DNA of 64,000 nucleotides, from IMG/VR virus record IMGVR_UViG_2880395615_000010; one strand, given 5' to 3'. Position 1 is the stretch's first letter. Every line of letters begins with the position of its first letter. Made by a program: the position numbers. This document shows, one piece after another, positions 27,001-33,000 of the stretch. The stretch comes from a virus. Lineage: Duplodnaviria > Heunggongvirae > Uroviricota > Caudoviricetes.

Positions 27001-30000
27001 CCAGCGTCCTTCAGAGTGGGCGCTGGCTTTTTTTATTATGCTGCCGGTGCATTTATCTCCAGCATCAGACTTTCTATCTCAACGCCATACGCTGCATTTT
27101 TTGTAACATCCGTCAGCGTCAGCGCATTCAGTCCCAGTGTCAGACTGTCTTTTATAACCTGGAATGCCGGGCCAGCCACTCCATTCAGTTTCGGAGTAAC
27201 CGTGGCACTGCCGGCGGTGAACACCAGCTCCAGCGTCTGCCAGTCGTTACCGTAATCGCCGAACTCCCCCAGCTTCGTGTTTCCGGCTTTCCTGTGATGC
27301 ATCAGATTCACTCTGCCGTCAGTGGTCTGAGTGAAGTACGACATCAGGAACGGATCCCCCCAGCAGCTCATCCAGAATGGCATCCACTTCAGCATCAAGA
27401 CGCGCCTCAAGATTCTGGCGGAGTTGCTGTTTCAGTGCGCTTCTGACTTCTTCAGAGCGCAGGACGTCCTTCACTGCTTCAGCAGTGACCAGAGATTTTA
27501 TTTCTGACATGGGATTTTCTCGTTGAAAGGTGTTGTTAAGAAAGTTGCTACGAAATGAGAGGCTCTTCGGGTTTTGTTCCGGCTGACTGGCTGGCGCTGA
27601 TTTTTTCCGCCGCCGCGGCATCAATCTTTTTGCGTATATAGTTCCGGATAACCTTATACCCGCCACTTACCAGATATAACGTGCACACCACCGTGCAGAA
27701 ATACAATAAAATAAGCTGTACAAATCTCATTATCCCTCCCGGTTATTGATATGGTGTTGACATCGTTAATACCTGTTGGTTAAAAAAGTGTCCTGCATGT
27801 TTTGCTTTGGATATAACGACATTTGCCGCCGGTTCTGGCTCCTTGTTTTCCCTGCCCCGGCGGCCTTTTTTTTCCTGCTTACGGGTTATTCACTTCCACT
27901 GTTATACTTTCAATCAGCACCGGATATGTCGCACCGCTAGTGATATCGGTCACGCGCAATTTGTCTGCCGTAAACGTGCCGACCGGTGACTGTGACAGCA
28001 TGAACGGCGTCCCGTCCTTACCATCAATGACCGGCGTCACCTCAATACTGTTGTTACCGGCAAAACGGAAGCCCAGCGTATGCCATTCGTTATCAAATGC
28101 GCCGAATGACCCCAGCTTCGTGTTCTGACCAGCATTTCCCTTGTAGTACATCACATTAAGGTCTGTGGCATCGCTCTGTACGTAAAACGACGCCAGCAGG
28201 TTATGACCGGCATTACCTTCCAGTGTGACGCCCTGAGGCAGTGAAGAAACCGGCCAGTACAGCGCCAGTGCGTACTGATTAGCTGTCAGTATGCCATCAA
28301 CTTTAAAACGACAACTGATAAGCCCGCCCTTCTCCAGCAGGTCTGCGCCATTACCGGCATCATGCTGCATAAACCACGAGGAACTTCCTGTCTGTTTGGT
28401 CCACCTCAGCGCCTTACCTCCTGCAGCACCTGCATCATCAACTACCAATGCACGCCCTCCTTCAGCTCCCCATCCCTGCGGATTCAGTAAACCACCTGAC
28501 TCTGTTGCACGGTAATAAAGCAGCGTTGTCACTGATTTCCCGTCCGTTGGCCACCATCCCCCGTGCCGGGCACAACCACTGGCGTGGTCACATCCCCCTC
28601 CGCGGCAATCGCCTGCATCAGGGTATAAGGGGTTATGGCCACCGGACTACCAAACGGCTGCCAGCCCTCTTTCAGTTTGTGTGTCAGCTTTTCCGCAAGC
28701 TCTGACGGCGACGCCGCCTTGACAACATCATAGTGTTTAAATGCCATGGTTCTTTCCACCATCTAAAAAATAATTCTTTAAGATACCTGACATGTAATAC
28801 ACAAAACCACACCTTAAATAAAAACCTCATCATAAAGCAGATATGCATGGATAAACTACAAGACGAGGTATAAACCACCCTGCATTTAAATAAATAATAA
28901 ACAACATCAGAAAAATAATTCTGCCCTATGGTTTACATTCAAAATTATCATTTATACTTTTCAGAACAACACCAGCAAGGCATAAACAAGGAAACTAAAT
29001 GAAGTGGATTGTGATTGATACAGTTATCCAGCCATCATGCGGAATATCTTTTTCAGTCATATGGAGTAAAATAAAATTAATAATCTGGTATCAATCGGAT
29101 GCTTTCTTACCTCCTGAAAGTATATTTACACTGACTCACACAGGTATCATGCTCAATAACAAAGTGCTACCTGTAACCATTTACAACGTAGTACCATTCA
29201 ATAAAACATTCTGGAATTTAATCAAAAACAGCCAGGAATGCCCTACAAATACAGATAACGTATTGAATGAATGCTTTAATAACCGTTGCACTCTGCAAAT
29301 ATGTCCTTATGGACTAAAACAGCAAAGTCCATAAGGAGTTTACTCACATCTGACAAAATCAATATAAACAGCCCCTCCGGAGAGGGGCTGGAGAGTGGCG
29401 CTATGTGCCATTGCATGGTGCCGGGTGCCTCCCGGTGAATTCAGTACCAGCACCTGAATCCGCGATTATCCCATATACCTACTCGCTGATTGCCCCTCCG
29501 CACAGGGGGATTCACCATGCCAGTTTCTTTTAACAAACTCCCCGCAAACCAGACAACAGTCAACCGCCTGAATTGTGAGACATTTAAAAAAAAAGCCCGC
29601 AAAAGCGAGCCAGGGAAAATAAGTGTGGCGCGTTGTACTGGATTCGAACCAGTGACCGATTGCTTAGAAGGCAATTGCTCTGTCCGGCTGAGCTAACAAC
29701 GCAGGATACAGATAATGGACCGCCTTCGGGGACCCGAACTCCGCGCAACCAGCTTCGAAAGCTGGCGCTCTTTCCTGATGAGCTAATGGCGGTATGTGAT
29801 GGTGGCCCTTGCTGGATTTGAACCAGCGACCTGGCGATTATGAGTCGCTCGCTCTCACCACTGAGCTAAAGGGCCGGGAGCAGAATAATAATGGTGCGTA
29901 ATTAATTCTGCAATCTCATCCGTTTCAAACGATTAAATCCTGAACTTCCCTGACTGTCTGCTCAAAACGTCCGGTCTCCAGCTCAACACCAATCGCACGA

Positions 30001-33000
30001 CGCCCCAGTGCCATCGCCGCTTTTACCGTTGAACCCGACCCCATGAAAAAATCCGCAACCAGATCACCAGGACGGCTACTTGCGCTGATTATCTGCTGCA
30101 GCATTTCTGCCGGTTTTTCGCACGGATGTTTCCCTGGATAGTACTGCACCGGTTTATACGTCCACACATCGGTGTACGGCACCTGCACCGTCACACCGAA
30201 ATACCTCCGCAAATTTTTATATTCACTCAGCAGTTCCATATACTGCCGGTTCAGCTCACTGTATGTGCTGACCAGTTGGTAATGGGACTTTTCCAGTTCT
30301 CCCCGCTGATGTTTCTCTTCTGCCACCCGGGCAAACAGCGACTGTAATTTCAGATAATCGCTTTCGTTCGGTAGCTGCCACTGACTGGCACTGAACCAGT
30401 GCGACACCATGTTTTTCTTTCCTGTGGCATCTGCAATCTGTTTTGCCGTTATCCCCAGGGCCGCGCGTGCATCACGAAAGTAAGAAATCAGCTGGGCCAT
30501 CACATGCTGTTTCAGTTCCCTGCCCTTCGCCTCATACCCGGCATCTTTCGGGCGATACGGCCCCTGATAATGTTCCGCGAACAGAATGCGCTCTGTGGCG
30601 GGGAAATACGCCCGCAGGCTTTCCTTGTTGCATCCGTTCCAGCGTCCGGACGGCTTCGCCCAGATAATATGGTTCAGCACACTGAAGCGTTCACGCATCA
30701 TGATTTCGATATCAGATGCCAGGCGATGACCACAGAACAGGTAAAGACTTCCGGCAGGTTTCAGCACCCGCCAGAACTGCGCCAGACACTGGTCCAGCCA
30801 CTTCAGGTAATCATCGTCGCCCTTCCACTGGTTATCCCAGCCCTCAGGCTTCACTTTAAAGTACGGCGGGTCCGTGACTATCAGGTCAACAGAATTTTCG
30901 GGTAACGACCGGATAAATTCCAGGCAGTCGGCGTTGATTAACTCACAACTGGATATTTTTACAGTATTAAGCATGGATCATTAAGCCTGTCTCTGATAGG
31001 CTCATTCTGCTTTTGCGCAAAGCAGTGGGCCTGAGGTTTGCTTGTGAACCCAACGCATGAGCAGATGGCTGGTGGGTGCCCCTAACACCCACCAGCCGCC
31101 CATTTACCACAAATAAAAAAGCCTTCACTGCGGAAGGCGTCTGTAACAACCGAACTGATAGTCTGCCAGACCCGCCATAACCAGCTGGGTCAGTATTAAC
31201 TGGCAGCGTTCGCGTGAAAGGTAAGTATTCTGCGCTATCTCCCCGACTGTCGCCGGTTCGGTAACGCTTAATTCATTAAACACCACTCTGGCGGTTTCTG
31301 TCATATCCTGCTGTTTTAGCATGTCTTTTTCCCTTTTCCGGTTAACGTGACACACCAATAACTCTTGTCGAAAAAGCCAGCAAGCTGAAAGAACGGTATT
31401 AATAACCACCAGCGAATTTATTGCGCTACTGTATATCGCGGACACAAAAAAACCACCTTCCGGTGGCTTCCTTGTGCGAAAAAAACTTGCGTTTCGCCTC
31501 GCGATACAGCTTTGCGAAGCTTATACGGATTGAAGCAGTTTATTGATCAGTTTGCAACATTTTTCTCTGTAACAAAAGCCATGCGCATGGGGGCATATAA
31601 CATAAATTCAGATACCCCCAACCATTGATCAATTCGGCGTCTGCACGTAACCAACGACCAATCAGGATGATCTGCATTTAACCTTTCGGCCATGTTCAGT
31701 TTGCTCATTCCCCGTCCTTCGTACCTTTGCCGGAGAACATTGATTAGCCCGGGATATTCCCCAAGCACCTCACTGATAACGCGATCAATAATCAACGCCT
31801 CTGTGTCTGTACAATGTGACAACCAGCTCTTCTGCTTTCCTCTTGTCATATCCCGAAAAAATGCCTCAAGTTCCGGTTTTTCCAGCCCGGATTTCTTCAT
31901 TCTGCGTAAAACCTCATTAACTGCTGTTTTCGTCAGCTTTTTCGAAACCAGTAACCGGTTAAACATATTTCCGGATTTACCCCCACCGATATACGACCAC
32001 CGCCCCCACATCCGTAATTTCCCCTGGATCCAGACTGCTTCCAGCGTGTTCAGGCGTAAATGTTCGCCTCTTTTGCCTGTAATTTCCGGATATATCATAT
32101 TTACGCTCACTCACTCTCAATTTTGTAAATCTTCACACCCAGCCGTCCACCAGATACTGGCTGACCACGTACAATATTGATTTCATCAAACTGCTCGTCA
32201 TCAATGAGCACTCCCGCATGCGTCAGCGCATCCAGCGGTGCTTTCAGAATGTTGTCCAGGTCGCGACGACGCTTATCCGGTGGCTCTGCAATCACCTTTA
32301 TCGCCAGCGTTCCGGACAGGCTTAATTTCAGCCGCTGCTGGCGAACAATAAGCGCCACAGCCCGGCGATAACGCTTTCCCTCCTCCGAGATAAAATATGT
32401 GCTGCCACGGCGTCGCCAGTAAGTGTTCACCGTCGGCGGGTAAGGTAAAACCAAATCTATGAGCATCAGTCACCTCTTTTACCCAAGCACGCCAGTTGCA
32501 AAGGCGTGATCAAGAAAACGAAAAATTAAATCAACCTGAGAACCATGCTTTTCTTCGAACGCCAGCGGATCCGCATGAAGCTCGTTGTGATGCTCCCGAC
32601 ACAGCGGTAGCGTGAAAATATCGTGAGATTTTGTCCCCATTCCGCCCTGACCGTGACCAATCAGGTGATGGGGATCGTCTGCTGGCTTACCACAACATGT
32701 ACACGGCTGTGTCTTTACCCAGCGCGTGTATTTCTCATTCACCCAGCGGCGACGTTTAGGCCGCTTCATGAATGATTCCGGTGACTCCGGATCAACGGCA
32801 ATGCTGACCACCGTCTTTTCCTGTGGTGGGTTCTGTTGCTGGTGGGCGTGAGGCAACGGCGCAAAATTTTTTGTGCGCTGCTTCAGTATGCTGATGGCTG
32901 TCTGTTCTCCCGGTATGATGTCACTCTCGCGGTATACTGAGTGGATTTTTTCCGCGCGTAACCCCAGAGAACGATGTAATACTGCCTCCGGTAGTGCGTC

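Follow-up and report, generated by a model that had tools for sequence, protein, structure and literature searches.

Gene content of the locus

The stretch of DNA analyzed here, referred to below as the window, comprises 64,000 nucleotides (nt) of the IMG/VR record IMGVR_UViG_2880395615_000010, assigned to the Caudoviricetes, and contains on its minus strand a gene coding for a DNA methyltransferase of 349 amino acids (aa). The gene lies between a Q-like antiterminator gene and a cluster of three tRNA genes; along this strand the Q-like gene is followed by a candidate pR' promoter with a putative pause element, a terminator-like hairpin (T1), a small gene coding for a 65-aa protein, a second terminator-like hairpin (T2), a structured leader, the methyltransferase, the tRNAs, and finally by lysis, head and tail genes (Table 1). 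The enzyme itself is already known and characterized, and the finding is in this respect largely ordinary; the leader of ~135 nt and the small gene, which is co-conserved with the methyltransferase, both appear undescribed.

Table 1. Features of the window; positions are counted from the first nucleotide of the 64,000
Feature	Position	Strand	Details
Q-like antiterminator (DUF1133, Q21 family)	31547-32110	-	Pfam, PHROG and PDB profiles; PGAP start 32098
Candidate pR'	31529-31557	-	-35 TTGCAA 31552-31557 (overlaps the end of the Q-like gene), 17-nt spacer, -10 TTCAAT 31529-31534
Direct repeat in the candidate pR' spacer	31534-31553	-	AAACTGAT / AAACTGCT
Conserved CGTATAAGCTTCGC block	31514-31527	-	-10-like TATAAG (31520-31525); candidate sigma-dependent pause element
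T1, best candidate for tR'	31446-31467	-	Hairpin GCCACC-GGAA-GGTGGT and T7 (31446-31452), A-rich stretch upstream
Conserved non-coding block	31352-31384	-	CTTGCTG-N11-(C/A)AGAGTTA-N3-TGT, upstream of the small gene
65-aa winged-helix protein gene	31125-31322	-	Co-conserved with the methyltransferase
T2	31111-31138	-	Hairpin GCCTTC-CGCAGT-GAAGGC 31121-31138, then TTTTTTATTT 31111-31120
Structured 5' leader of the methyltransferase	30975-31109	-	~135 nt, helices P1-P4; covariance model R2
M.EcoGII-family methyltransferase, beta class	29925-30974	-	349 aa; open reading frame, Pfam, homology
tRNA genes, ileZ/argN/argO type	29626-29875	-	Anticodons CAT, TCG, TCT; ARAGORN, Rfam
CAT-anticodon tRNA	29800-29875	-	
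Terminator-like hairpin 3' of the tRNA cluster	29586-29611	-	T8 run; -10.9 to -11.4 kcal/mol, z = -3.2
STnc100-family small RNA	29360-29549	-	Rfam RF02076, 132 bits; strong hairpin 29369-29390 at its end
iraM anti-adapter gene	28999-29334	+	
DUF968/HNH-like gene	32479-33600	-	phrog_96 'HNH endonuclease'
hok/sok locus	34120-34295	-	Rfam sok, 117 bits
DicF small RNA gene	39873-39924	+	
Second tail gene set	47200-59000		

The methyltransferase

The open reading frame (ORF) starts with ATG, ends with TGA, and displays the motif order of the beta class, in which DPPY (residues 35-38) precedes FMGSG (residues 310-314) along the chain. The PF01555 profile (N6_N4_Mtase) covers residues 29-340 (E 1.4e-44, 153.2 bits, cut-off 26.7), and solved beta-class enzymes, M.RsrI, CcrM and M1.MboII among others, are matched at E 1e-14 to 1e-26. 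These results agree with a preliminary description of the stretch, made from the sequence alone, which had recognized a beta-class enzyme of 349 aa with DPPY before FxGxG and had regarded it as an orphan. This second statement was also borne out: no restriction endonuclease is annotated within ~20 kb of the gene in two 99.9%-identical genomes, and PADLOC returned only methyltransferase models, for the methyltransferase, with no hits for the four neighbouring genes tested. The adjacent cognate endonuclease gene of a Type II restriction-modification system is missing, and a prophage-borne gene devoid of a cognate endonuclease corresponds to the M.EcoGII type.

The target specificity, considered unknown in the preliminary description, can be anticipated from homology. 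The protein is identical to M.EcoGII at 338 of 350 aligned positions (~97%), over the full length and colinearly, the reference being the machine-read sequence of Supplementary Table S1 of PMC11551740, which contains about four evident reading errors. The mismatches at HHIW, RRRAIG and TKVPQYY are probably such errors, the protein of phage 1720a-02 matching the window at these sites. Seven differences are likely real and are all found within residues 152-243, corresponding to the linker and recognition region, where the window has E152, Q160, S163, S191, S229, Y231 and Q243, and M.EcoGII has A, P, A, P, P, H and K, respectively. The two enzymes share the length of 349 aa, the arrangement of DPPY, recognition domain and FxGxG, the location in a lambdoid prophage and the lack of an endonuclease; the window allele, whose activity is predicted, differs in the seven substitutions of the linker and recognition region.

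As reported by Murray et al. (2018, NAR 46:840; PMC5778455), M.EcoGII is a 349-aa beta-class enzyme from a prophage of Escherichia coli O104:H4 C227-11, which modifies adenine whatever the surrounding sequence; the native lysogen does not express it, and its constitutive expression is deleterious. The same authors indicate 333 of 349 identical residues between M.EcoGI and M.EcoGII, mention 'a very large family' among E. coli prophages and name a 'very similar' enzyme in phage 1720a-02; the sections of the paper that were consulted do not describe a context comparable to that of the window, with Q, two terminators, a winged-helix gene and a leader. A review also reports M.EcoGII as silent in the lysogen and toxic (PMC12707154), and homologs from O111 enterohaemorrhagic E. 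coli, with 92-94% identity, are listed as 'nonspecific', with no motif in lysogens (PMC6602927). The 1720a-02 enzyme has 94% identity with the window protein, and this phage is also the top phage match at the DNA level (93.6%). The DNA module is widespread: among 5426 complete E. coli genomes, 3503 contain a match to it, and the exact window protein is found on 454 contigs, its 90%-identity cluster having 4845 members.

Because of the near-identity to M.EcoGII, the window enzyme is expected to be a context-free, S-adenosylmethionine-dependent N6-adenine methyltransferase of the M.EcoGI/M.EcoGII family, and the database label of the protein (NCBI), 'site-specific DNA-methyltransferase', is generic and, for a protein of this predicted type, misleading. 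The appearance of a new methylation motif on induction, the absence of which had been indicated as a refutation of the proposed role, is then an ill-posed assay, as a non-specific enzyme yields no motif; since a motif search would be misleading, methylome studies should look for a global rise of N6-methyladenine on the DNA of the induced phage.

The Q-like gene, the candidate pR' promoter and T1

The identification of the upstream gene as Q-like, already proposed, was confirmed by the profiles of DUF1133 (E 7e-104), Phage_antitermQ (30.4 bits, cut-off 26) and phrog_753 'anti-termination protein Q-like' (E 6e-75), and by the Q21 chains 6p18/6jnx of the PDB (E 1.4e-5). A sigma-70 consensus scan of the interval between this gene and the methyltransferase called no promoter, and the predicted pR' was placed solely by comparison with orthologous loci carrying a DUF1133-type Q. 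In these loci a clear sigma-70 promoter directly follows the stop codon of Q, with hexamers far better than those of the window: TTGACT-N16-TAATAT in Xenorhabdus (locus L039), TTGACT/TATAGT in Proteus (L073) and TTGATA/TCATAT in Rosenbergiella (L031), each with a second -10-like hexamer at most 5 nt after the promoter. The 14-mer CGTATAAGCTTCGC of the window is identical in L039 and differs by one base in a further locus, L065, despite diverged flanks, while TATATG of L073 and TATGCT of L031 are found at the offset matching TATAAG of the window. The direct repeat in the spacer of the candidate promoter, AAACTGAT / AAACTGCT, recalls the two 8-bp subsites bound by Q21, without clear conservation in the orthologous loci.

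This layout fits the Q cassette of phage 21, which comprises a promoter, a promoter-proximal -10-like pause element, a terminator and the late genes (Yin et al., bioRxiv 10.1101/651190). More generally, the window shares with the switches of lambda, phage 21 and 933W/Sp5 (StxS RNA) a Q-family gene, a candidate promoter close to it, a candidate -10-like pause element, a predicted intrinsic terminator and late genes downstream; it differs in the length of the terminated leader, predicted to be only ~75 nt from the putative pR' start near 31522 to T1, and in the presence of a second, weaker terminator and of a structured leader further downstream. The terminated leader of lambda is 194 nt long. 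For Sp5, a length of 258 nt has been reported (PMC7547250).

T1 is located ~55-75 nt downstream of the candidate pR', with folding energies of -10.3 kcal/mol for the core and -23.9 kcal/mol (z = -6.3) for the extended hairpin. The comparison drew on 80 loci coding for relatives of the enzyme, with 95% identity in Escherichia albertii and 56-66% in Xenorhabdus, Photorhabdus, Proteus, Morganella and Gilliamella. Three Stx phages have, at the position aligned with T1, a GC hairpin of different sequence followed by a T-run, and in most of 72 loci a strong hairpin with a T-run, again of variable sequence, precedes the small ORF by ~100-130 nt. Strong terminator-like sites within 600 nt upstream were found on the sense strand in 48 of the 72 loci, compared with 10 on the antisense strand and three inside the gene. 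In four loci (L003, L004, L065 and L073), 0.5-1.6 kb of other genes, some on the opposite strand, are inserted between the unit formed by Q, pR' and terminator and the cassette of small gene and methyltransferase; a terminator is still present just upstream of this cassette.

The small gene, the upstream block and the leader

In 49 of the 72 loci the gene immediately preceding the methyltransferase codes for a homolog of the 65-aa protein, with aa identity as low as 37%; the homologs all begin with MLK..DMT and have the conserved core C-x3-L-T-Q-x3-A-G. The protein belongs to phrog_331, of unknown function (E 1.4e-37), and its names in the source databases are 'TrmB family' and 'DprA-like winged helix'. 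A profile search against PDB sequences gave nothing significant; the AlphaFold2 model (pLDDT 93.4) has the H-H-H-strand-strand topology of a winged helix, and Foldseek aligned it with the winged-helix domains of MarR, IclR and O-methyltransferases (TM 0.66-0.79). An extended reading of the small ORF, of 106 aa and starting at GTG 31445, was ruled out, as the homologs start with MLK..DMT behind an AAGG-type ribosome-binding site and because the distance between the upstream block and the ATG changes among loci by lengths not divisible by 3.

On account of this variable distance the block is considered non-coding. Its TTG, AGAGTT and GT are invariant across 23 loci that extend from Escherichia to Proteus, and it is placed 30-60 nt upstream of the ATG. 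It looks like a -35 element combined with an odd -10 ending in G, and could be a promoter of the cassette, an operator or an RNA element. CTTGCTG as part of a sigma-54 promoter was rejected, no GG element being present 12 nt upstream, and the integration host factor and boxA readings did not fit either.

The region between T2 and the ATG of the methyltransferase is more conserved than the flanking genes and can be folded, on the basis of RNAalifold and manual inspection, into a long hairpin (P1), a long-range helix (P2) and two enclosed helices (P3 and P4). The 3' arm of P2 is formed by the 11 nt preceding the ATG (-11 to -1), and no leader member has a Shine-Dalgarno sequence at -12 to -4. 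The covariance model derived from this hand-checked structure (R2) finds the leader in the window and in 43 of 82 other loci, in several genera and always abutting the ATG of the methyltransferase, with no hits elsewhere in 606 kb searched on both strands; a previous model based on the automatic RNAalifold structure (R1) was discarded, since there the P1 base was paired with a distant segment. In the alignment, 94.4% of the cells of the 40 pairs are paired, and compensatory changes occur in 17 of the 40 pairs, compared with 7.1 +/- 1.8 in shuffled and 4-8 in slid controls, values to be read considering that the alignment was fitted to the model and that the lineages are related. As many of the pairs are G-U, the sense RNA is favoured. 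The copies of Xenorhabdus and Photorhabdus are shorter and retain P1.

A 60-aa ORF crossing the leader (30967-31149) was rejected in favour of an RNA structure, given the compensatory and G-U changes. No Rfam family was found on the sense strand of the interval between Q and the methyltransferase, either at the gathering threshold or at E<=1; a sub-threshold match to P26 on the opposite strand was treated as due to chance.

Expression and role of the methyltransferase

The explanation that best accounts for these features, and which is considered probable, is that the window encodes a context-free methyltransferase whose expression in the lysogen is prevented by termination downstream of pR', probably with a contribution of the leader, and is turned on with the late genes through Q, shielding the progeny. 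In the lysogen, the pR' transcripts would stop at T1 and any leakage would stop at T2; the leader, by pairing with the bases preceding a start codon devoid of a Shine-Dalgarno sequence, would help the terminators in keeping a toxic enzyme silent, its effect being probably additional to termination. Upon induction, RNA polymerase modified by Q would pass both terminators, the enzyme would be produced together with the lysis and morphogenesis proteins and the replicating phage DNA would be methylated before packaging, so that adenine methylation, which blocks many restriction systems of Types I, II and III, would protect the progeny from them. What the analysis shows is the identity of the enzyme, the order of the genes, and the occurrence and conservation of terminators, small gene and leader; the activity of the promoter, the dependence on Q and the roles assigned to the leader and to the small protein are inferred, and the lack of specificity, the toxicity and the silence in lysogens come from the literature.

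Since the methyltransferase is located on the late strand between a Q homolog and the lysis and morphogenesis genes, late, Q-dependent expression is its natural reading; this part of the preliminary description is retained, with the gate moved away from the terminator to which it had been assigned. Further support comes from phiP27, 1720a-02 and many Stx2a phages, in which the cassette lies between the Q and stx2 genes, since expression of stx2 from pR' by Q-dependent read-through is established (PMC7547250), and from the S21-like holin gene (phage-21 type) that follows the methyltransferase in other genera: in 16 such loci it starts 26-815 nt past the methyltransferase, at most 190 nt in 15 of them. 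The resemblance to the methylase-tRNA-stx2 module of the Stx2 phages (phiP27 L23-L24, 1720a-02 and Stx2a_1447) is extensive, as it involves the 65-aa gene, T2, the leader, the methyltransferase and the ileZ/argN/argO tRNAs, with 88-94% DNA identity; the differences are the Q gene, which is of the DUF1133 type in the window and codes for a protein of 113-126 aa in those phages, and the absence from the window of stx, whose slot is occupied by an STnc100-type small RNA and iraM.

As to the purpose of the modification, protection of progeny DNA from restriction has already been proposed for the M.EcoGII family by Murray et al. (2018, PMC5778455), and the gene order described here gives that proposal a concrete, if predicted, mechanism. 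Of the two roles suggested in the preliminary description, protection is thus the one retained; the other, a mark for packaging, is unsupported, since a context-free methyltransferase is unable to write a mark at specific sites.

Several observations weigh against this explanation. The hexamers of the candidate pR' are weak (8/12) and fall under the threshold of the consensus scan, and its -10 is 2 nt nearer to the pause-like element than in the orthologs. The block upstream of the small gene could represent a promoter belonging to the cassette, in which case expression would be partly independent of Q, and in phiP27, Stx2a_1447, L065 and L073 other genes separate Q from the cassette. On the side of the enzyme, the specificity of the window allele may be affected by its seven substitutions within residues 152-243, where the linker and the target-recognition part are found, and the imperfections of the machine-read M.EcoGII reference have to be considered. 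Finally, a literature search yielded no published measurement of virion DNA hypermethylation in such phages, and no post-induction expression data on the methyltransferase; the methylase is not mentioned in a comparative paper on pR' (PMC6266700).

Alternative explanations

The first alternative is that the 65-aa protein, the block and the leader form a switch proper to the cassette, which would operate with Q or instead of it, similarly to the control of restriction-modification genes by C-proteins or to Com, the activator of mom translation in phage Mu. The co-conservation of the small gene down to 37% identity, its winged-helix model, the invariance of the block and the pairing of the leader with the bases before the start codon are all in line with this possibility, and the cassette travels as a unit behind different Q types. 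The features in common with the com-mom operon of phage Mu would be a toxic DNA-modification gene silent in the lysogen, an upstream gene of ~60 codons and a start region engaged in an RNA helix. However, Com is a zinc-finger RNA-binding protein and com overlaps mom, whereas the small protein of the window, which has one invariant Cys only, is modelled as a winged helix and not as a Com-type zinc finger, and ~150 nt separate the two genes; the comparison is one of analogy only. A review likens M.EcoGII to Mom, both being silent and toxic (PMC12707154). Against an autonomous switch, about one third of the loci keep the leader and the methyltransferase without the small gene, which argues that the latter is dispensable; moreover, the block contains no conserved palindrome that could serve as an operator, and the last base of its -10-like hexamer is an invariant G, unfavourable for sigma-70. 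This alternative is therefore regarded as possible, but doubtful.

A further proposal, equally tentative, is that the cassette is a safety device of the M.EcoGII family, consisting of a leader that hides the start codon, in most cases accompanied by the 65-aa protein and the block, which together with Q would set the timing and the dose of expression; the circuit would then be an undescribed one. The winged-helix gene, the block and the leader may thus form an additional, cassette-specific layer of control, a hypothesis that, if true, could explain why genes of this family are difficult to express and might be used for the tight control of toxic genes.

In the second alternative, corresponding to the preliminary description, T2 would be tR' and the sole gate of Q, and the methyltransferase would be a site-specific orphan enzyme with a target yet to be defined, protecting the DNA or marking it for packaging. 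A hairpin followed by a T-run is actually present 409 nt past the stop codon of Q, as had been stated; in four phages its stem is invariant and its loop variable, hairpins with other stem sequences span the stop codon of the small ORF in other genera, and in loci devoid of the small gene, where the leader is kept, a strong terminator is often found exactly at the place of T2, abutting the leader. The NCBI name of the enzyme would also speak for a discrete target. On the other hand, the hairpin is not strong, as had been claimed, but modest: its stem has 6 bp, it reaches -7.5 kcal/mol alone and -9.6 kcal/mol in context (z = -0.97), and 31 of 200 shuffled sequences are as stable. Neither does it lie in a non-coding leader, as its loop holds the stop codon of the conserved 65-aa gene. 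The T-run is kept in ~12 of 44 leader-bearing loci, that is, in Escherichia, some Enterobacter, Citrobacter and few others, and is lost in most genera. T2 is thus neither the only nor the best terminator of the interval: since T1 is close to the candidate pR' and its position is kept across genera, while the T-run of T2 is limited to some lineages, T1 is more likely to be the tR' gate, and T2 a secondary stop. As to the enzyme, near-identity to the non-specific M.EcoGII speaks against a discrete target; a context-free enzyme would be unable to write a packaging mark, the large terminase belongs to PHROG terminase families, and we know of no methylation requirement in packaging of the lambda type. 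Overall, this second alternative appears improbable.

A third possibility, which is very unlikely, is that the relevant substrate is RNA, such as the adjacent phage tRNAs or host RNA, and not phage DNA. Three tRNA genes are indeed located 50 nt downstream of the methyltransferase, and M.EcoGII also methylates RNA and DNA:RNA hybrids in vitro (PMC5778455); its initial rate on RNA, however, is ~100-fold below that on DNA (0.12 vs 11.12; Table S3 of PMC11551740). In addition, the adjacency to tRNAs is a trait of Escherichia and of the Stx phages, tRNAs being found downstream in only one of 72 loci from other species, and a holin being often directly next. Just as improbable is a silent relic without a current function in this prophage: the gene has never been seen active in lysogens and many copies lie in degraded prophages, but its ORF is intact and identical on the 454 contigs, the conservation of protein, leader and position extends from Escherichia as far as Proteus and Gilliamella, and the gene complement of the prophage is full for replication, lysis, head and tail.

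The presence of the enzyme in the window adds little to what is known of it, as it is already characterized and serves as a footprinting reagent for chromatin and RNA. The comparison of loci provides a picture of how the enzyme would be kept off in the many E. coli genomes that carry the module, by T1 after pR', a weak T2, and the leader with the winged-helix gene.

Prophage context and neighbouring genes

The prophage looks lambda-like and apparently complete, with the methyltransferase at the head of the late operon. The cluster of three tRNAs that had been noted after the methyltransferase was confirmed; downstream of it, on the same strand, the phage-21-type holin is followed by terminase, portal, protease, capsid, tape-measure and tail-fibre genes, while the replication and integrase genes are on the opposite side of the methyltransferase region. 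The ileZ/argN/argO trio also precedes stx2 in the Stx phages. The CAT-anticodon tRNA is called tRNA-Met by ARAGORN and tRNA-Ile, for an identical gene, by PGAP (ileZ type, lysidine-modified). The STnc100-family small RNA and the iraM gene fill the slot after the tRNAs that is held by stx in the Stx phages.

On the other side, genes for RusA and for a DUF968 protein precede the Q-like gene. The latter, DUF968/HNH-like, is readable for 373 aa, compared with 349 aa assigned by PGAP in the near-identical genomes; it accompanies Q and the methyltransferase region in many genera, though not as a restriction partner. In its early region the prophage contains a hok/sok locus, annotated as hokD in related genomes, and the DicF gene. 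Further along the window, the second set of tail genes includes a 439-aa tail fibre, a 1158-aa J-like protein and an 859-aa ORF of tape-measure size; it mirrors the genes at 1.9-12.5 kb, suggesting that a second lambdoid prophage lies in tandem.

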